Shown here piece by piece: positions 32,247 to 64,000 of a DNA stretch of 64,000 nt. Under the pieces are notes generated by a model. That model did no database searches and was not told the origin of the DNA. It saw only the letters and a program-made list of their open reading frames with translations. The translations under genes were made by a program, and so were the position numbers. How positions within the stretch are numbered: position 1 is the stretch's first letter; each line of letters starts with the position of its first letter. Origin of the DNA: Macrostomum lignano (Eukaryota); NCBI GenBank assembly GCA_002269645.1, contig NIVC01000528.1, forward strand, positions 252,087 through 316,086, in the 5' to 3' direction.

Positions 32247-33749
32247 TCAAGCCTCCTTTTCTTCGGCCGCAACCAATTTCTCAGCTTCCGACTTGGCTTC
32301 TCCATCTTCCTGCAGCTGCACCAGGAACACCTTCTGCACTAAGCGAGTGAGATCGGAGGTCCAGCGCAGCAGAGACTTCGGCTTGTTAGTCCAGGCCACG
32401 CCGATCAGGTACACCGGCACAGCTGTCAGGATGATCACCACGCCCATGGCGCACTCCCAGAAAGCTCCAATGAAGGCGTTGGCGCACAGCAGCACGGTGA
32501 ACATGGTGTACACAATCGGGAATATGATTGGCACGCGAACCGGGCGCGGATCGTTAGGCCGCTTGACGCGCAGGTACAGCACGATGGAGACGGACAGGCC
32601 GATGGCCAGCCAGTTCACGAAGCCCATGTAGTTCACCAGCACGTAGATGTCGTCAATGGTGAGATAGACAAGCGAGATGAGACCCACCAGCAGCACAGCG
32701 GGTAGCGGGGTCAGCAGGCGCTGCTGGATCATGCACAGAAAGCTGGGCATCTGACCTTCCTCGGCGGCCACAAAGAATATCCGCGACGTGGTCAGCAGGA
32801 CGCCGTTCACACCGCCGAATGTAGACAGGGACACGAAGATCGGCATGACGGCGGCCAGGAAGCCGGAGATTTTCTTAGCAAATAGGATGGCAACAGCCGG
32901 TGTGGTCACGAACTCGGCAACTGGAACCGTGGTGAAGTAGGCGGCGTTGGCCAGGACGTACACCACAGTGACGATGGCGCATGAGATGAAGATTGCCAGG
33001 GGCAGGTCGCGCTGCGGGTTCTTCATCTCGCCAGTGACGCAGTTCAGGTAATTCCAACCGTTGTAGGCAAACAGGCCAGAGTAGAAGGCGCGCACGAGGT
33101 TGCCGACGCCCATCACCGAGTCGGCGAACGGCTCCTCAAAGAACTCGACTTTGCCTCGGCCGACCTGGACGCAACCGGCGATGATGATGATAATTAGGGC
33201 GAGCGTTTTGCCCCAGGTGCAGATGTCCTGAATCCAGGTGGAGGCGCGGATGCTCCAGCAGTTAGCGGCCGTCAAGATTGTCAAGCAGAGCGCGGCTAGC
33301 AGCTTCTCGGTGATGATTGGCGGCTGGCAGCCGGTGAAAAATGGCTCCAGGATGTACTTGGCAAAGGTGAGGGCTATGATGGTCTGAGAGCAAGGGCGCA
33401 TGACGAGGATCTCGCACCACATACGCAGGAAGGCCATGAATGGCCCAAAGGCCACCAGGAAGTAGGCGTAGTCAGCGCCAGAGCGCTGGATCATTGTGCC
33501 AAGCTCGGCGTAGCTGTACGCCCCGAAGAAGCTGTAGACGCCGCACAAGACCCAGACTAGCAGCGAGGCCCCGATGCTGTTCACCTCCTTGAAGATGCCG
33601 GTCGGACTAACAAAAATCCCCGAACCGATGATGGAGCCAACGATGATGCTGACGCCGTTCATTAGAGTGATCTTCTTTTGCAGCTGCACTGGGGAGGCCG
33701 CATCGGCCGAGTCGGCCTGCTCACCAGATTTCTTCTTACACAGCGGCAT
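32247..33749 (-). CDS. SLC7 L-type amino-acid transporter light chain (LAT1/LAT2/y+LAT family), 500 aa, intronless CDS
   Basis: Complete ORF with NGVSIIVGSIIGSGIFVSP, YAELGTMIQRSGADYAY, FYSGLFAYNGWNYLN, EMKNPQRDLPLAIFIS and about 12 hydrophobic segments. Confidence 0.96.
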   Translation of the reverse strand: MPLCKKKSGEQADSADAASPVQLQKKITLMNGVSIIVGSIIGSGIFVSPTGIFKEVNSIGASLLVWVLCGVYSFFGAYSYAELGTMIQRSGADYAYFLVAFGPFMAFLRMWCEILVMRPCSQTIIALTFAKYILEPFFTGCQPPIITEKLLAALCLTILTAANCWSIRASTWIQDICTWGKTLALIIIIIAGCVQVGRGKVEFFEEPFADSVMGVGNLVRAFYSGLFAYNGWNYLNCVTGEMKNPQRDLPLAIFISCAIVTVVYVLANAAYFTTVPVAEFVTTPAVAILFAKKISGFLAAVMPIFVSLSTFGGVNGVLLTTSRIFFVAAEEGQMPSFLCMIQQRLLTPLPAVLLVGLISLVYLTIDDIYVLVNYMGFVNWLAIGLSVSIVLYLRVKRPNDPRPVRVPIIFPIVYTMFTVLLCANAFIGAFWECAMGVVIILTAVPVYLIGVAWTNKPKSLLRWTSDLTRLVQKVFLVQLQEDGEAKSEAEKLVAAEEKEA

Positions 33750-53767: not shown

Positions 53768-54929
53768 ATGGAGACAGCAGCTGAATAATATGAAAAGCGT
53801 GAGTTGACCACAAAAATACAGTTTACTGTTGGCCGGTCTGTTGTTCTTTTAACTGTGCCACGTTTTGATTTTTATTTTTAACTGTTTTTCCTCAATAGAT
53901 TTGGCTAGGCATTCTTTCTGCTAGAAGCCTTCAAAAATGCGAACGTGTCTTAGTTACTTTTTTACAGCTGATAATAACTCTGAATTCTGTGTCAATGTTC
54001 TCCCGTAGTTATCTTATTTTTTGCTTCACCTAAGGCTCGTTCACGCCACTATCAATGGAAACTAGTTTTTCGTGATCGAGAAAACCCTTTGCCCCTCATT
54101 GACTTCGTCACTTTGTAGCATGAGTCGTGTGATGCGACTGCATTGGCAACGAGCCTTGGGCGTTGTAAAAATCAAGTTTTCGGTATAGAATTTGAAGTAT
54201 AACGTGTACTTCCGCTTAGAGTTTTTACTCGTGTGTAGTAGATTGAGTTCTAAAGTGCTTGAATAGAAAATTATATCTAACCAATATCTGGCCAACGTCA
54301 CCTGCCGAATATTAAACACTGATAATGCAAGGACCGTTTTATGACATTGGACTATGCATACTTAACCAACTCAGTTACATGTATGTTGCTGCTAACATTA
54401 AACTGAAGTACAACGTACAAGTTCATTGGTTTCCTAATAAAATTCAGAAAGGCCTGCAAAATATTCTCAACTTTGTATTGACAGTAGAAAGTGACGAATG
54501 CTGATGACTCTAACTGCCCAAGTTTGGCTTTTAGCGACTGAGGAGTTTCAAAATTTTACAAAAATATTTTTATATCTTTTCTCTGCGACACTGCCTTCTC
54601 TTGATCCCACTGTGGAATCCCATGCTTACTGTATTTTTTATTTCAAAAGTAGATACGTAAATAATAAATACGACGTACCTGTCAAAAATGATTTGTTTAA
54701 AATTTTATTGTATTCATTTTCAGACCTGAATTCAACAACAGCAGCAGCTTGAATGCTTTTTTGAAAATTAAATTTAAAATTGTAACCCTTTCGGTAAGAA
54801 AATTTAAAACTTTAAAATAATTTGCAAAGAAAAAAATTAAAACAAATAATATAGCCTTATAATCCGGAGTTCATTCAACAAAGGCAAATATTCGAATGGA
54901 AATGCGACTTTCTTTATTCTTCATCCTAT

Positions 54930-57900
54930 CCGGGGAGAATCAGACAGGATGTGACAGTTACTAATCATCCGGTCCGGGGTGAATCAGACAGGATGTGACA
55001 GTTACTAATCATCCGGTCCGGGGTGAATCAGACAGGATGTGACAGTTACTAATCATCCGGTCCAGGGTGAATCAGACAGGATGTGACAGTTACTAATCAT
55101 CCGCTGCGGGGTGAATCAGACAGGATGTGACAGTTACTAATCATCCGCTCCGGGGAGAATCAGACAGGATGTGACAGTTACTAATCATCCGCTCCGGGGT
55201 GAATCAGACAGAATGTGACAGTTACTAATCATCCGGTCCGGGGTGAATCAGACAGGATGTGACAGTTACTAATCATCCGGTCCGGGGTGAATCAGACAGG
55301 ATGTGACAGTTACTAATCATCCGGTCCGGGGTGAATCAGACAGGATGTGACAGTTACTAATCATCCGCTCCGGGGTGAATCAGACAGGATGTGACAGTTA
55401 CTAATCATCCGCTCCGGGGTGAATCAGACAGGATGTGACAGTTACTAATCATCCGGTCCGGGGTGAATCAGACAGGATGTGACAGTTACTAATCATCCGC
55501 TCCGGGGTGAATCAGACAGGATGTGACAGTTACTAATCATCCGCTCCGGGGAGAATCAGACAGGATGTGACAGTTACTAATCATCCGGTCCGGGGTGAAT
55601 CAGACAGGATGTGACAGTTACTAATCATCCGGTCCGGGGAGAATCAGACAGGATGTGACAGTTACTAATCATCCGCTGCGGGGTGAATCAGACAGGATGT
55701 GACAGTTACTAATCATCCGGTCCGGGGTGAATCAGACAGGATGTGACAGTTACTAATCATCCGCTCCGGGGTGAATCAGACAGGATGTGACAGTTACTAA
55801 TCATCCGGTCCGGGGAGAATCAGACAGGATGTGACAGTTACTAATCATCCGGTCCGGGGTGAATCAGACAGGATGTGACAGTTACTAATCATCCGCTCCG
55901 GGGTGAATCAGACAGGATGTGACAGTTACTAATCATCCGGTCCGGGGTGAATCAGACAGGATGTGACAGTTACTAATCATCCGGTCCGGGGTGAATCAGA
56001 CAGGATGTGACAGTTACTAATCATCCGGTCCAGGGTGAATCAGACAGGATGTGACAGTTACTAATCATCCGCTGCGGGGTGAATCAGACAGGATGTGACA
56101 GTTACTAATCATCCGCTCCGGGGAGAATCAGACAGGATGTGACAGTTACTAATCATCCGCTCCGGGGTGAATCAGACAGAATGTGACAGTTACTAATCAT
56201 CCGGTCCGGGGTGAATCAGACAGGATGTGACAGTTACTAATCATCCGGTCCGGGGTGAATCAGACAGGATGTGACAGTTACTAATCATCCGGTCCGGGGT
56301 GAATCAGACAGGATGTGACAGTTACTAATCATCCGCTCCGGGGTGAATCAGACAGGATGTGACAGTTACTAATCATCCGCTCCGGGGTGAATCAGACAGG
56401 ATGTGACAGTTACTAATCATCCGGTCCGGGGTGAATCAGACAGGATGTGACAGTTACTAATCATCCGCTCCGGGGTGAATCAGACAGGATGTGACAGTTA
56501 CTAATCATCCGCTCCGGGGAGAATCAGACAGGATGTGACAGTTACTAATCATCCGGTCCGGGGTGAATCAGACAGGATGTGACAGTTACTAATCATCCGG
56601 TCCGGGGAGAATCAGACAGGATGTGACAGTTACTAATCATCCGCTGCGGGGTGAATCAGACAGGATGTGACAGTTACTAATCATCCGGTCCGGGGTGAAT
56701 CAGACAGGATGTGACAGTTACTAATCATCCGCTCCGGGGTGAATCAGACAGGATGTGACAGTTACTAATCATCCGGTCCGGGGAGAATCAGACAGGATGT
56801 GACAGTTACTAATCATCCGGTCCGGGGTGAATCAGACAGGATGTGACAGTTACTAATCATCCGCTCCGGGGTGAATCAGACAGGATGTGACAGTTACTAA
56901 TCATCCGGTCCGGGGTGAATCAGACAGGATGTGACAGTTACTAATCATCCGGTCCGGGGTGAATCAGACAGGATGTGACAGTTACTAATCATCCGCTCCG
57001 GGGTGAATCAGACAGGATGTGACAGTTACTAATCATCCGCTCCGGGGTGAATCAGACAGGATGTGACAGTTACTAATCATCCGGTCCGGGGAGAATCAGA
57101 CAGGATGTGACAGTTACTAATCATCCGCTGCGGGGTGAATCAGACAGGATGTGACAGTTACTAATCATCCGCTCCGGGGTGAATCAGACAGGATGTGACA
57201 GTTACTAATCATCCGGTCCGGGGTGAATCAGACAGGATGTGACAGTTACTAATCATCCGGTCCGGGGTGAATCAGACAGGATGTGACAGTTACTAATCAT
57301 CCGCTCCGGGGTGAATCAGACAGGATGTGACAGTTACTAATCATCCGCTCCGGGGTGAATCAGACAGGATGTGACAGTTACTAATCATCCGCTCCGGGGT
57401 GAATCAGACAGAATGTGACAGTTACTAATCATCCGGTCCGGGGTGAATCAGACAGGATGTGACAGTTACTAATCATCCGCTCCGGGGTGAATCAGACAGG
57501 ATGTGACAGTTACTAATCATCCGCTCCGGGGAGAATCAGACAGGATGTGACAGTTACTAATCATCCGCTCCGGGGTGAATCAGACAGGATGTGACAGTTA
57601 CTAATCATCCGGTCCGGGGAGAATCAGACAGGATGTGACAGTTACTAATCATCCGGTCCGGGGTGAATCAGACAGGATGTGACAGTTACTAATCATCCGG
57701 TCCGGGGTGAATCAGACAGGATGTGACAGTTACTAATCATCCGCTCCGGGGTGAATCAGACAGGATGTGACAGTTACTAATCATCCGCTCCGGGGTGAAT
57801 CAGACAGGATGTGACAGTTACTAATCATCCGCTCCGGGGAGAATCAGACAGGATGTGACAGTTACTAATCATCCGCTCCGGGGTGAATCAGACAGAATGT

Positions 57901-57950
57901 GACAGTTACTAATCATCCGGTCCGGGGTGAATCAGACAGGATGTGACAGT
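54930..57950. repeat. 44-nt satellite array (~68 copies; ccggggtgaatcagacaggatgtgacagttactaatcatccggt)
   Basis: Near-identical units with no spacers; variants recur at 968 nt (22 units). Confidence 0.97.
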
Positions 57951-58221
57951 AGTAGTATAGAAAAAGACGCTTCTAGACCCAGAGCACTTTTTTAATGTCC
58001 GTTTTAAGGGTCTAGAGGGGGGACACGGGGGGTAAATAAAAAAACACATCTAAACACCATTAATACATCTAATCACCCATAATCACCCCTAACAATAAAA
58101 ATCACTTCCCAACACTTCCAAACACTCCCCAACACCCCCCTCGCGTCCCCCCTCTTAAGACCATAAAAACGGTCATTAAAATAAGGTCTGATCTAGAAGC
58201 GTCTTTTTCTATACTACTACT
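57948..58221. repeat. 274-nt cassette bounded by inverted AGTAGTAGTATAGAAAAAGACGCTTCTAGA repeats
   Basis: The first 30 nt are perfectly inverted, with imperfect pairing to about 85 nt; no TSD seen. Confidence 0.85.
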
Positions 58222-58275
58222 CTATAACCCCTTGCCCGCGCCGCAGGCGCGAAGGGTCTTTTTCTGTTACTAAAA

Positions 58276-58590
58276 ATGACCCAAGTTTACACCTTTTCTG
58301 TTAGTGATACTTTTGAGACTGTTGCTAAAAATGCAGAGATAATAAAACAACATATTTTGAATGGAATAATTGATGAAGTTTATTTAAAATATGACGACAA
58401 GCACGACCTAAAACTTTATCCATTAGAGCTAGATGAGATGTATGATTTAGAACAAGAGGGTGAGTTAATATTTCAACTTGGAGATTATTTAAATTCGGAT
58501 GATTGGGAGGTTAGATCAACAGATTCCGAATCAACAAATAGTTCATATGAAACCAGTGATTCAGAGAATGAAAGTGAAATTTTTATGTGA
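58276..58590 (+). CDS. Viral ORFan, 104 aa, acidic
   Basis: Open ORF with AAAAATG start context as in the neighbouring viral genes; no family recognised. Confidence 0.55.
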   Translation: MTQVYTFSVSDTFETVAKNAEIIKQHILNGIIDEVYLKYDDKHDLKLYPLELDEMYDLEQEGELIFQLGDYLNSDDWEVRSTDSESTNSSYETSDSENESEIFM

Positions 58591-58662
58591 AAAAAATATT
58601 TAAAAAATGAACTATTATTCTATAACAGAAACGACATTTATTGTGAAAAATATATATAAAAA

Positions 58663-58830
58663 ATGAAGGTAAACCATTCCTACATCGGAAATGTTCCAAT
58701 TAATGAACTTAATGAAAATTTAAGTTTGATAACAGTTGAACAAATGTCAATAATAATATTAGTAACAATTATAGTAATAATATTGTTTTTGTTTGTTATA
58801 AAAAATTTACTACCATGTTGTCTTAAGTAA
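58663..58830 (+). CDS. Small (55 aa) single-pass membrane protein
   Basis: MKVNHSYIGNVPINELNENLSLITVEQMSIIILVTIIVIILFLFVIKNLLPCCLK*; AAAAAATG context; below the ORF-track cutoff. Confidence 0.45.
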   Translation: MKVNHSYIGNVPINELNENLSLITVEQMSIIILVTIIVIILFLFVIKNLLPCCLK

Positions 58831-58840
58831 CTGTTTGAAC

Positions 58841-60447
58841 TTAGTTCGCAGACATTATCTGGTTCTCATAAAAAGAACCCAATATTTCTTCACCATCCTT
58901 ATCAGCAATTATATAGGTTGTAGGGTTTGTATTTAAAACTTTACTGATGGTAAATTTCTCACTTATTTTCCAATATCCTTTTCTTCCCTTTTCAAACTTA
59001 TCTTTCCATTTATAGATATAAACAGAATCACCAACCTTAAAACCTTTAGTTTTCTTTTTTTCAAAATCTCCAAAAGTAACCCTAACGTTTTCAGGATTGT
59101 TATAAGCTTGTTGAGGAGCCATCTTTATCGCCGAATGATATGAATTGTTATAATCTTTCACTACGTCTGGTAATATTTTTACCCATTTTTGGTTACCATT
59201 AAGACTAAACTGAAACCATAATTTCTTACCTAAAGTTCTATTAAATCTTTCTATTAATGCGTTTTACTCTCTCCATAAATAGAATAAATTTTATTAATAT
59301 ACTCCCCATTCGCGTCTTTTTTCCTTTCTTGTCCTTTTTCAAAATGATATAATTTATACATATGAGGATTGTAAAATTCTTTTCCTTCGTCAACACACAA
59401 ACGTTCGCTTTTTTCTCCAAGACTTCTAAAAGCAGCAGCAACATCCTCTCCTTTTTTGGATTTTAAAGGAACAGCCCACGCGTATCGAGTAAAACCATCT
59501 AATATGGTTAAGATATATTTATATCCTCTTTCGTTCGGCATAGACATTAAATCAGCATACTAAATTTCATTCTTTTTGAAGTTCATGATTTTTCTATAAA
59601 ATTTAGGTTTTCGATATTCTTTATGAAGAACCTTAGCCTTATCATAACTTAGCCCACTACCACTTAATAACAAACATTCGACACAATTATTACCATGTTG
59701 GTTGTAATTAATTCCTAAACCAAATTTAACTTTAGATTGTAGAATTTTTTTAACCATCCACCTAGTTAATCTTTGCCCTACCGATAATCCCTGCAAGTTA
59801 TCTAATCCTTGAATCATTTTTTGATCGGCTTCATGTTTTAATCTTAATGCTTCCTCGGGCGGGTTCTTGTCAGCATCTCTATATGCTAAGTCGTGATAGT
59901 ATGCTAACCAATCAATCCCATTTATTGGAATTGAATCAGATTTTGGGGTGTCATCAGGATTTAATCTCAAATCTAAGCGAGTCCCCGGCAGTTTACCCTC
60001 AATCTTTCGAAAGAGGCTGGAGCACACCTTAAGCGGCGATAATTACCGCCCATCTCCGTCTGCTCTCTGAACCTTCTCCTTATATTTAAAATACTTAGGA
60101 GCTTGGCTGCGCATTGCCACCGTGTCTTCAAGCTTTTTACCATCGAACCATAGGTTCGCGGACGAAGTCCGATTGGGAAGAGGAGTTACCTCTGTTCCTT
60201 CAAAAGATTTCTCAATTGAAGTGGTACTTGAAGCTGTATGACGGGTTTCACGCAATTTGGAGATGTCGCCACAAATAGTGACTAGCAAGGACATTGCCTT
60301 CCTCACTCAGGCCACGGGTTAACCTGTGAAGTTCATTGATGGTAGGTGTAGTTCCCCTGTATATTTACCAGTAGTAAAGATTGGTGGTAAGCTTGTTAAT
60401 CCTTTTTGAACATCTAACAATCCTCCTTCAAACACTATTTGGTTCAT
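58841..60447 (-). pseudogene. PLA2 (parvovirus VP1u/PLA2X-like)-retroviral-type integrase fusion gene, interrupted by a group I intron
   Basis: Exon 60447-60322 (..ELHLPSMNFTG) plus 59988 onward (PGTRLDLRL..PINGIDWLAYYHDLAY..RLKHEADQKM) gives PLA2. It continues in frame to LHKEYRKPKFYR..NEI*YADL (TAG at 59560-59562 where W is expected), YILTILDGFTRYAWAVPLKSK, VDEGKEF, a frameshift near 59258, then ALIERFNRTL..YNNSYHSAIKMAP..FKVGDSV. Confidence 0.88.
59989..60321 (-). ncRNA. Group I self-splicing intron, IC1-like, 333 nt, no internal endonuclease
   Basis: 5' exon ends in U and the intron ends in G. P1 CAGGU/GCCUG with U.G wobble; P AAAUUGCGUGAAA; Q AAUGCGCAGC; R GUUCAGAGAGCAGA; S AAGGUGUGCUCC; P7 GAGCA/UGCUC; P3 CAUCUCC/GGAGAUG; P8 GGCGGU/AUCGCC; P9 GAAA-loop hairpin. 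Excision restores ACA GGT CCG GGG ACT (TGPGT). Confidence 0.9.
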
Positions 60448-60997
60448 TTTTAATAGCCATAAAAATACATGATAGCACCAATTGTTTTGCAAACTCTTCA
60501 ATGGTTGGTTGTTGAACTTTTTTATAGCGATTATCTACGCTAGTTAAGTATCTTTTATTTCTCCAATTTTCAGACCTTATCATCTGATCATCATCTTTGT
60601 AACTAAATGAAGAAGCGGGGATGAAATGATCAATATCTAACTTTCCAGTATAATCTTTTGATACATAATAATTTCTTGTGAAATTTAACCAATCAAAAAA
60701 TAATTCTTTTGTGCAACCAAGATATGAGATATAGTCCTTGTCATTAAAATTTTTCAACGCCCAATTTATTCTATTTCTAATTAAAACAATATGTTTGTAA
60801 TTATCATCATTGTGATACTTGTTTTTTCTATATTCATTAAATTTATCTTTATTGTTTTTTATCCAAATAGCAGATGAGGTATTATGACAAGATCGACAAT
60901 CATTTCTAAATTTTTTTGAATCATTTCTCCAAAAATAAAATTCTTTCGTCATCGGTTTTTCTTGTTTACACTTAGTACAAATCTTATTAGTTTCCAT
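60428..60997 (-). CDS. Free-standing HNH/EndoVII-like endonuclease (type common in large DNA viruses), 189 aa
   Basis: N-terminal CxxC..K..F..CxxC zinc finger; YLGC..F; DIDHFIP..N..L..DNRYK HNH-like core. Intact ORF whose 3' end overlaps the PLA2-integrase start. Confidence 0.78.
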   Translation of the reverse strand: METNKICTKCKQEKPMTKEFYFWRNDSKKFRNDCRSCHNTSSAIWIKNNKDKFNEYRKNKYHNDDNYKHIVLIRNRINWALKNFNDKDYISYLGCTKELFFDWLNFTRNYYVSKDYTGKLDIDHFIPASSFSYKDDDQMIRSENWRNKRYLTSVDNRYKKVQQPTIEEFAKQLVLSCIFMAIKNEPNSV

Positions 60998-61049
60998 TTT
61001 ATAAAAAATAAATTTAACAATTAATTAATCGAACCTTTGGTTCGCGACC

Positions 61050-61721
61050 CTACGGGGCGATTCCTGTATGTCCAGCAGCTTTCGCAGCAGCTAAAACAAG
61101 TTTTCGCGGTGTTTTAAATCCTTCTCCAACAGCCGGTTTGTTATTTATAGAATTAACAATCCTTTTATACAAGCTGGTATTTTTAACAGCTCCTCCTAAC
61201 TCATCATAAAAAATTCTAGCACTTATTAATTCATCCCTAGTATATAAATCAGGGTTAAATTTTACCCTAGGGTTCATAACAATATTATATGCTCCACCCA
61301 ATTCTCTATATAGTTCATTTCGATTTTTATCAACTCCACCAATTCGATAATTATTATTACCTAAATCTGTCGCAGCAATACTAGCTGGTACTCTTGGATA
61401 TTGTTCCCGATCGCCCCGCTCTGCACGTCTAATCTCTGCAATTCTCAATTGCGCTTGATCAACATCATAAGCAGGCGGCTCATCCAAAATTTCATCCTCT
61501 TTTGGCTCCGTATTTTTAGCAATTTTTTCCAGAAGATCTTTATCTGTTTTTTCTAGTTCACTAATTTTCCCAGTAATAGGATTAACAAAAGGAGCAGCAA
61601 ATCTTTCGCCAGCTAATTGTATTCCTAACTTTCTTTTTTGTAAATTTCTAACAAAATCAGAATATCTTTGCTTCTCTTTATAAATCGCTAACTCTCCATC
61701 AACGTCCATAAATTGACTCAT
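61050..61721 (-). CDS. Viral hypothetical protein, 223 aa (coiled-coil-like N-terminus)
   Basis: Intact ORF with AAAAAATG context; FVNPITGKISEL resembles motifs recalled from uncharacterised Polinton proteins. Confidence 0.6.
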   Translation of the reverse strand: MSQFMDVDGELAIYKEKQRYSDFVRNLQKRKLGIQLAGERFAAPFVNPITGKISELEKTDKDLLEKIAKNTEPKEDEILDEPPAYDVDQAQLRIAEIRRAERGDREQYPRVPASIAATDLGNNNYRIGGVDKNRNELYRELGGAYNIVMNPRVKFNPDLYTRDELISARIFYDELGGAVKNTSLYKRIVNSINNKPAVGEGFKTPRKLVLAAAKAAGHTGIAP

Positions 61722-61755
61722 TTTTTAACATAAAAAACTTTTTTAACTTAAAAAA

Positions 61756-63225
61756 ATGGCTGAAACAAAAACTATGTGGAGTGATAAATTTCATTTCAAA
61801 AAGCACCGACAGTATATTAATGAGGTCAGAGCAAGAGATTTAAATTATACCCTACCAACAAGTGATAATTCAAATAACTTTACTACTGGAACGGTAACTT
61901 TTGACATCGGCGCAACCAACACTATATTGGATATGAAAAATGCGTTTTTCCGCGTTAGATGGTTGTATACTAGAAATGATGGAACTGCTCTTGCAGCCGG
62001 AGATATCGCAGATCGATCCGGAATAATAATAGAAAATGATTGGTTTTATAAATGTTTTTCCCAAGCTCAACTAACTGTTAATGGTGCTGAGGTTGAGACA
62101 TCATCAAACCCCGCAGAGATTAATGGAGTTTTGAAACATTTAAATTATACTTATTTATCAAAACAAGTTGGTGATAATGTTGGGTGGATGCCGGATAAAG
62201 GTAACGGTCAAGCAGTAGTTTTCCCTAATGTACAAAACGCAGCCGGGCAGATACTGCAGCGCTAATTGTTTACCTTAATACAAACATAGTTCCAGTTGTA
62301 ACCACTATGACTAATACAAAAGATATTAATACTGGTTTTATAGATCGTCAGAATAAATTCCCAGTCGCGGTTTTAACCACAACAACAGCATATGAGCAGG
62401 ACTTTTCAATCTTTCCACTATTTGGGTTTTTCTCACCAAATCGGGTAATGGAAAGGATTAAAATTTGGGATACAGTTGCAAATATCTGGTGGATATCAGC
62501 CTAGGATACTTTATGGAACCTCAATTTCAACGATATAGCAGTTCGTATAGATTCAATTCAATTAGTCGTACCAACTATTGAGGTAACAGCCCCACTTTTA
62601 AAACACATCGATAATCAGTTAACGCATGATCAGGAAATATTTTATTTGAATGCGTAGACACTTTATGCGAACCATTAATAACAATCAGGATTCATTCCAG
62701 TGCAAATACTGACATCAAAAACGTCGGGTGAGATATATTTTGTTTGGTTTAAGATAACAAATAGAAGGAGTAAAAGAGCAAATGGGGATTTATATTGGCT
62801 TCAATCCGGTGCCATAGCAGAACAAGCAGCCACCGCAACAGACAATGCGGCTGCAGCTATTAACGAGTTAATGTTCAGAATATCCGCCTGCAGGTTGATG
62901 ATCAATATTATCCGGTTAAAGACCCCTAAATTTAAATATAGCAAATAATAATGTTAATGATTTTATAAAATATTATCAAGATTATGCTAAAAGATGAAGC
63001 GTATGCCGTCCCTCAGTACACACCCACAGAGTTTCTAAAACATTCATCCAGTGGTTGTTTATGATCTAACGGCACAGAAAGAAAACGTAGCCAATATTGG
63101 ACTTAATTATATGTTAGAGATTAATAAAACCGGTAATCAGGCACTTGACGCCCACGTATTGTTTCTAGAGGAATATATGTCAATTGCTAAAGCTGATGGC
63201 ACGATTGTTCGGGACGCACCTATTT
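61756..63225 (+). pseudogene. Probable major capsid protein (double jelly-roll), frameshifted
   Basis: N-terminal ORF with FSQAQLTVNGAEVETSSNP..LKHLNYT..GWMPD, typical of Polinton/PLV MCPs. Continues through several frames to ..DGTIVRDAPI*; lies directly upstream of the ATPase. Confidence 0.68.
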
Positions 63226-63241
63226 AAATTATTTCATTAAA

Positions 63242-63980
63242 AATGGTAAAAGCAAAACACAATAAAATATTTCCAAATGATCCTTTTCTTTGTTTAGTAA
63301 TCCGAGGATCAGGTAAAGGAAAAACACACTTTGTTTTACGATTTATTAACAACAGATGGAATGTTAGACTATAATAATTTAATAATTTATACTAATAAAC
63401 CTAGAATAAAATATTATGAATTTCTTAAACATGGATTAAAAAACAAATTAAAAAAAGATCTTGTTTAGAATGTTAAGAGCATATGAGCAATATGAGGATG
63501 ATGACGAACCGCGATTTAATCTAGCAGACATTGAGGATTTATGTAAAACAATGGCACAACAGCCAGAAAAATCACCGATCGTACCGAAGCGCGGACTTCG
63601 TCCGATCGAGCCCCAACAATTACAATATCAAACCGATTAACTTATGACAAAATTCCAAAAAATGATAAAACACTAATTATTTTTGATGATTGTATTAATG
63701 ACGGTGATCAAGAATTACAAAAGGAAATTTTTGTTAGTGGTAGAGGAGATGGAATCGGAGCTTTTTATCTAACACAGTCCTTTAGAGAATTAGAATCGAT
63801 TATAAAAAAGAATGCAAGTTGTTGTGTAATGTTTGATTTAGATAATTATGATTTACAAAATATACACGCTAGATTTAATCCCGGTTGGATGCAAAACCAT
63901 TTAAAAGTATGTGTAAAAAATTTGGATGATAGCCAATACAAACATATTTTATATCAATCCGAGGTTAGAAAGGAAACATA
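63242..63980 (+). pseudogene. A32/FtsK-like packaging ATPase, frameshifted
   Basis: MVKAKHNKIFPNDPFLCLVIRGSGKGKTH (Walker A), TLIIFDDC (Walker B, ~63665-63695) and GRGDGIGAFYLTQS (motif C); multiple stops. Confidence 0.82.
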
Positions 63981-64000
63981 GAATTTTAACAAATTTGATA

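Follow-up and report, generated by a model that had tools for sequence, protein, structure and literature searches.

The final ca. 6 kb of a 64-kb window (i.e., the whole stretch of DNA analysed, 64,000 nucleotides (nt) of Macrostomum lignano contig NIVC01000528.1) hold the left arm only of a Polinton-type element, whose polymerase and opposite end fall outside the window. One host gene of the window clusters at 90% identity with proteins of Macrostomum lignano, which identifies the host as this species or a near flatworm relation. On the minus strand this arm carries, in order, a 223-amino-acid (aa) open reading frame (ORF), a 189-aa ORF, PLA2 exon 1, an intron and PLA2 exon 2 leading into an integrase. 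The 189-aa ORF is a free-standing putative nuclease gene and the intron next to it is a group I intron without an ORF, and we consider the two here as a candidate pair for collaborative homing, in which a free-standing nuclease mobilises an adjacent intron. The features concerned are the following (GC, guanine-cytosine content).

61721-61050, minus strand: 223-aa ORF directly upstream of the nuclease gene, taken from the ORF list; an alternative candidate target gene
60997-60428, minus strand: free-standing nuclease ORF, 189 aa, 26.5% GC, no internal stop, with a C4 zinc finger, a helical linker and an HNH/HNN-type domain
60447-60322, minus strand: PLA2-integrase exon 1, 126 nt, 42 codons, its first 20 nt overlapping the end of the nuclease ORF
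60321-59989, minus strand: ORF-less group I intron, 333 nt, 47% GC, from the Rfam RF00028 match and helix pairing
59988-58841, minus strand: PLA2-integrase exon 2, a PLA2-like domain followed by an rve integrase, interrupted by a stop (59562) and by a change of frame near 59263

The nuclease gene lies outside introns and inteins, between the 223-aa ORF (ca. 50 nt upstream) and PLA2 exon 1, which opens with an ATG at 60447 in AAAAATG, the usual start context of the element. The original prediction, made from the letters of the window, had placed the end of the ORF at 60428, overlapping the PLA2-integrase start and about 107 nt from the intron insertion site; all of this holds, the overlap being 20 nt and the distance from the nuclease stop to the insertion site exactly 107 nt. 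A location of the nuclease within a larger intron was rejected, as a true exon 1 of PLA2 stands between it and P1 of the intron.

[quoted passage not shown]

The intron matches RF00028 over the whole model with 61.1 bits (E 4.6e-14; gathering score 50 bits); Rfam gives no other group I match in 57900-64000, and the intron lies downstream of the nuclease gene. Its boundaries were set by the U.G pair that closes P1, by the terminal G and by P10, and 18 of 18 hand-checked helix segments pair fully, giving P1 (U.G), P2, P2.1, P3, P4, a full P5abc, P6b, P7, P8, P9, P9.0 and P10. The features expected of a group I intron, i.e., the P1 U.G at the 5' splice site, the P3-P9 core, the G-binding site of P7 and the terminal G, were all found, and 99 of 100 shuffles fold less well than the region does (z -2.96). 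The full P5abc suggests a subgroup IC1-like intron, by the structural rules for group I subgroups. The intron had been said to encode no nuclease, and this was borne out, since its longest sense frame (87 codons) is chance-like, being matched or exceeded by 87 of 2000 shuffles, and its 83-aa ATG frame gave no match in a Pfam search and was rejected as a gene. No nuclease remnant was seen 5' of P3, and P1, P2 and P2.1 are compact.

The interrupted gene fuses PLA2 to an integrase. This fusion is real, as an intron-less relative (P0213, 397 aa) aligns to both exons, with 56% identity to exon 1 and 62-63% to exon 2 plus integrase, and the existence of such a close intron-less relative makes the intron optional. 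The end of exon 1 and the start of exon 2 align to the adjacent P0213 residues 35 and 36, and splicing is predicted to restore the PLA2-integrase frame. PLA2 and integrase occupy one reading frame (58841-60447, minus strand), as they do in P0213, and integrase expression would therefore depend on intron splicing.

The insertion splits the motif G|PGT, the most conserved of PLA2: 14 of 14 aligned PLA2 relatives have G-P-G-T without variation, and a G precedes PGT in 15 of 17 PLA2 matches. The first residue of the closest PLA2 match (P0164, 65% identical) is an M that falls exactly on the exon-2 boundary. Such a start fits a gene caller using the terminal xTG of an intron, and P0164 is probably a second intron-bearing allele at the same site; a damaged P0164 copy would give the same M start. 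The window copy has itself decayed: its integrase part contains an in-frame stop (59562) and changes frame near 59263. Given ca. 2 breaks per 400 codons, an unbroken nuclease ORF of 189 codons is no evidence of selection, and its intactness was rejected as a sign of it.

A predicted zinc-finger HNH-type nuclease

The 189-aa protein combines an N-terminal C4 zinc finger (C7, C10, C34, C37) with an HNH/HNN-type catalytic domain (D123, H124, N147, N156). Across 35 aligned relatives H124, N147, N156 and K159 are invariant, all four being kept in the window protein, and D123 and three zinc-finger cysteines are near-invariant. The roles of D123-H124, N147 and N156 (catalytic, structural, metal-binding) we take from family knowledge. 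A structure model had been proposed as the check for a His-Me finger, and the predicted model (predicted local distance difference test, pLDDT, 92.8) places a strand at 120-124, a strand at 148-152 and a helix at 153-159. With these conserved residues set in beta-beta-alpha order, the modelled protein has the core of a His-Me finger (HNH) nuclease, in agreement with the zinc-finger/HNH call of the original prediction.

The protein has many relatives: a HMMER scan gave 1939 at E<=0.001, of which 67 reach E<=1e-10. A word-seeded homolog search with the nuclease alone scored 0 of 23 candidates, a blank that, given the HMMER result, is a sensitivity artefact. Among predicted viral structures, a fold search returned 43 matches at E<=0.001, many of them named HNH endonucleases. 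The closest folds are giant-virus proteins, among them mimivirus L246 (E 1.6e-10), for which we found no link to an intron in the literature, and a Bodo saltans virus protein named 'Intron encoded endonuclease' (E 2.4e-8).

A likeness to the EndoVII-related F-CphI had also been drawn, and this part did not survive. Endonuclease VII families do figure among the PHROG matches, chiefly over the N-terminal part (one EndoVII match, E 1.3e-7, spans residues 5-130). The DHHRN/EndoVII class is defined, however, by a central DHDH, an N-terminal CX2-4C and a C-terminal CX2C pair, and conserved Arg and Asn (PMC6083498). In the window protein CX2-4C pairs occur solely at residues 7 and 34, distant from D123-H124, and residue 126 is Ile, not His; membership of the F-CphI/EndoVII class was rejected, as DHDH and the flanking CX2C are absent. 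The nuclease would resemble a homing HNH enzyme in its working while lying outside the DHHRN class, as judged from its residues and model.

A gene of this kind need not home at all. It could be a domesticated viral gene that, e.g., helps in packaging, degrades host DNA or attacks co-infecting viruses, roles that have been suggested for HNH genes of Polinton-like viruses (PMC12220804) and with which the EndoVII matches would be in keeping. We consider this improbable, in view of the modular DNA-binding plus catalytic layout, the occurrence of family members inside introns (next section) and the GC content of the nuclease gene, the lowest among nine element segments measured (the others reach 30-47%). 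It is very likely that the 189-aa ORF is a homing endonuclease gene.

Related nucleases that read into a ribozyme core

Out of 182 relatives of the nuclease examined, 94 carry a C-terminal tail of at least 20 aa, and each of these tails was compared with the window intron against 200 shuffles. Three of the 94 match the sense strand of the intron above all 200 shuffles (maxima 18-20 bits): that of P0008 with 47 bits and 70% over 37 aa, that of P0149 with 33 bits and that of P0090, a marginal case, with 22 bits. The tails of P0027, P0048, P0057 and P0067 also look like translated group I cores, but those of P0048, P0057 and P0067 did not beat their shuffles, and none of the four is counted here. 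The matches run from P2.1 to P5 of the intron, and the same nuclease-ribozyme junction recurs in four further members of the P0008 cluster. On the simplest reading, the P0008-type nuclease would be intron-encoded, 5' of P3. As the tail match spans the peripheral P5abc, the P0008 intron and the window intron appear closely kin, on a comparison that covers these two introns.

P0008 shares 34% identity with the window nuclease over 185 aa and is among the five rows nearest to it, both falling in a 21-row clade with an SH-like approximate likelihood ratio test (SH-aLRT) value of 94 (quick fallback tree, 121 columns, 138 of 151 rows kept). Since P0008 reads into a related core, the lineage of the window nuclease and that of the intron appear to occur also as one composite element. 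Together with the fold match to the Bodo saltans virus protein, the P0008 and P0149 tails give this nuclease family predicted members in mobile introns.

The composite relatives also invite another history, in which the intron is an ORF-less descendant of a P0008-like composite that has lost its nuclease, or was seeded in trans by a composite intron elsewhere in the element. The adjacent nuclease would then be an insertion, unrelated or escaped, that has a different target. ORF-less offspring introns dependent on a parent's nuclease have been proposed in Bodo saltans virus (PMC5871332), and the window shows just ca. 6 kb of the element. The compact P1, P2 and P2.1 with no nuclease remnant 5' of P3 argue the other way, as does the distance between the two nucleases: at only 34% identity to P0008, the window nuclease is not a recent escapee from the P0008 intron. 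We judge this history quite improbable.

As a separate observation, the extended P1/P10 guide (60318-60301) is complementary to both exon edges and, as DNA, resembles the intron-less junction reversed. One may speculate that a junction-directed nuclease might also cut the guide DNA, and that this could be why the insertion in P0008-type introns lies 5' of P3.

A proposed model of collaborative homing

The arrangement is that of a collaborative pair, i.e., an ORF-less intron in a conserved gene that adjoins a nuclease gene, with the intron-less relative P0213 in existence. In the model that we favour, a free-standing homing endonuclease gene would have entered a Polinton at a point flanked by the 223-aa gene and the PLA2-integrase gene. 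Its product would nick or cut intron-less PLA2-integrase alleles, most likely at or near the G|PGT codons, and repair from a copy like that of the window would transfer the nuclease gene by co-conversion, together with exon 1 (126 nt) and the intron. By splitting the target site the intron would protect the donor, and by splicing out it would still allow the integrase to be made. Elements of the P0008 type would represent the fused, composite state of the same nuclease-intron partnership. The activity of the nuclease, its target site, the protection and the direction of evolution are steps that we infer, while the anatomy of the locus, the nuclease family, the optional intron and the composite relatives were observed.

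The same anatomy can be read as ordinary intronless homing, with the nuclease targeting another site close by, either within the 223-aa gene or at a different point of PLA2-integrase, that is protected by divergence or by the nuclease's own insertion; the intron would then be a separate matter, at most hitchhiking by co-conversion. Free-standing homing genes are found between conserved genes, one of which they cut with no intron involved (PMC6083498), the upstream 223-aa gene is just ca. 50 nt away, and the closest relatives of the nuclease show no intron read-through. Left unexplained by it are the fusion of a same-clade nuclease to a close relative of the window intron and the location of the intron in the most conserved PLA2 motif. 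We regard intronless homing as possible but on the whole doubtful.

Several points weigh against collaboration of the nuclease with the intron. Where a genome is compact, the closeness of two genes says little, and among the accessory genes of such viruses nucleases are a common class (10.64898/2026.10.13.758929). Two relatives, P0001 (46%) and P0004 (53%), are nearer to the window nuclease than P0008 is and both end without intron read-through, and only one of the 21 clade rows clearly reads into the ribozyme core. The quick tree, on 121 columns, dropped 13 of 151 rows, and its SH-aLRT of 94 falls under the 95 mark. Pfam gives no HNH call for the window nuclease, and HNH_4 is called in just 2 of 35 family members. 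A Foldseek search of solved structures gave 0 of 207 matches at E<=0.001, the top rows being weak Cas9 HNH domains (E 0.05-0.1). Solved HNH structures likewise match weakly (the zinc finger reaches Z 5.7 at best and the catalytic part 5.0, with Cap5, BrxU, Cas9 HNH and GVE2 HNH at Z 3.8-5.0), and an alignment-based sequence search of solved structures gave three weak matches, one of them the zinc-finger region of Hpy99I. Finally, scans of bacterial and archaeal genomes yielded no flanked loci of relatives. In those genomes a PLA2 alignment scan gave 31 pattern matches, 0 confirmed, and an intron-core pattern scan 0 matches. A phage collection held six weak HNH/EndoVII-annotated records for the window nuclease and 26 for P0008, and a single 48-nt core match to the intron with nothing longer; a plasmid collection gave no match, and no second copy of the element was found within the 64-kb window.

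On balance, collaborative homing is the best single model for nuclease and intron, held at slightly short of even confidence. The observation behind it is real, and the collaborative reading is plausible, better supported now than when it was made, and unproven. What stands of the proposed pair is a predicted mobile, often intron-borne nuclease family and an optional intron in the most conserved motif close to the nuclease; what falls away is the kinship with F-CphI. That a ribozyme intron homes among Polinton copies in a bilaterian nucleus, in one lineage of eukaryotic integrating viruses, we hold to be rather unlikely, if conceivable.

Comparison with known systems

In the literature covered, collaborative homing has been demonstrated in phages and no more than suggested for eukaryotic viruses (PMC11296320, 10.64898/2026.10.13.758929, PMC5871332), where it has been invoked hypothetically for helicase and replicase genes (PMC11296320, 10.64898/2026.10.13.758929). 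Reviews describe it with the composite intron as its end point (PMC3984707, PMC2988022). The phage example closest at hand is F-CphI with the psbA intron of cyanophage S-PM2 (PMC6083498), a pair with demonstrated cleavage. The candidate pair of the window, by contrast, belongs to a eukaryotic integrating virus, and its nuclease is of another family, lacking DHxH and a CX2C pair around the catalytic site. In phage T4, mobE (PMC2790892, PMC2988022) is a free-standing HNH gene that overlaps its neighbour and mobilises the adjacent intron, as we propose for the window, but its intron carries a defunct nuclease, unlike ours. Free-standing phage homing genes overlap adjacent ORFs by 11-24 nt, although there it is the upstream ORF (PMC2988022).

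Among eukaryotic viruses, trans-homing of ORF-less introns was proposed for Bodo saltans virus, along with an HNH gene near an intein (PMC5871332), and the idea of a eukaryotic-virus version of collaborative homing, put forward in the original prediction, thus has precedent. The window nuclease shares its fold family with the intron-encoded endonuclease of that virus. The nucleases of that virus lie inside introns of giant-virus RNA polymerase genes, whereas the one in the window lies outside the intron, by a Polinton PLA2-integrase. Protist Polinton-like viruses carry RF00028 introns of ca. 309-376 nt and also HNH genes, between which the available account draws no link (PMC12220804). Their introns interrupt a short gene that lies upstream of the one for the major capsid protein, in viruses of cryptophyte, rhizarian and green-algal hosts, whereas that of the window sits in the PLA2-integrase of an animal Polinton. 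Adintovirus PLA2X (PMC8502044) is, as in the window, a parvovirus-like PLA2 in an animal Polinton with an integrase; however, PLA2 is fused in frame to the integrase in the window (and in P0213), and the window gene is split by a group I intron. The available text on PLA2X mentions neither HNH nor homing (PMC8502044). For HNH domains in nematode Polinton polymerases a group I intron origin has been suggested (10.1101/2023.08.22.554363), mirusviruses have spliceosomal introns bearing nucleases (PMC12768974), and group I introns in animals are listed, in the review available, only as scarce and in mitochondrial genomes of early-branching lineages (PMC3984707).

There are hence earlier reports both of group I introns in Polinton-like viruses and of (proposed) trans-homing in giant viruses. 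What is new is a nuclease of the same clade, P0008, that by its sequence reads into a core closely related to the window intron. In the literature covered, mostly open-access texts without supplements, neither an HNH-intron pair nor a group I intron was reported from an animal Polinton. If true, the pair would extend collaborative homing to nuclear, multi-copy elements of animals, in which donor and recipient could share one nucleus without co-infection. The occurrence of free-standing and intron-borne forms of related parts would also make the origin of composite mobile introns comparable within one lineage.

Other features of the element and its surroundings

The remaining features of the arm are listed below.

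57948-58221, no strand: Polinton left end, with AGT repeats starting immediately past a 44-nt satellite
60142..60173, no strand: AT-flanked double-hairpin insertion in intron P5abc, 30 nt net, without counterpart in the P0008-cluster intron
61028..61061, no strand: related AT-flanked double-hairpin lying where the 223-aa ORF ends, ahead of the nuclease gene
61756-63228, plus strand: long gene split into several frames, between the 223-aa ORF and the ATPase, from the ORF list
63243..63981, plus strand: broken A32-like packaging ATPase gene (Pox_A32 E 0.003, under the curated cutoff), supporting Polinton identity

A Polinton/Maverick (adintovirus) is expected to have terminal inverted repeats, an rve integrase, a packaging ATPase, capsid genes and a protein-primed polymerase. 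Pfam matches in the element are rve (E 3.5e-6), PLA2 (E 0.005) and Pox_A32 (E 0.003), all under curated cutoffs. The broken gene at 61756-63228 is presumably a capsid gene, by its position in the gene order of such elements; a Pfam search with its first piece gave no informative match, and Pfam and a further search gave no family match for the 223-aa ORF. At the Polinton end an inverted repeat (57948-58032 versus 58137-58221, 85 nt, 85% identity, ca. 105 nt apart) could allow the terminus to fold as a hairpin. The 44-nt satellite (54929-57950) comprises ca. 69 copies, 97% alike, the final unit of which runs into the AGT repeats of the Polinton.

Three related GC-rich double-hairpin elements of 29-34 nt, each AT-bounded, lie at 60142-60173, 61028-61061 and 63578-63606, the third within the ATPase gene. 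The clean 30-nt insertion in the intron relative to the P0008-cluster intron is consistent with a 2-nt target duplication. These elements resemble mitochondrial double-hairpin elements as far as the available descriptions of those go, and may be a tiny mobile family inside the Polinton; the pattern has one chance match in the host part, at 32550. The host region (1-57000) has tandem repeats densely placed within introns of ordinary genes, and also contains an intact single-exon amino acid permease gene (32247-33749).
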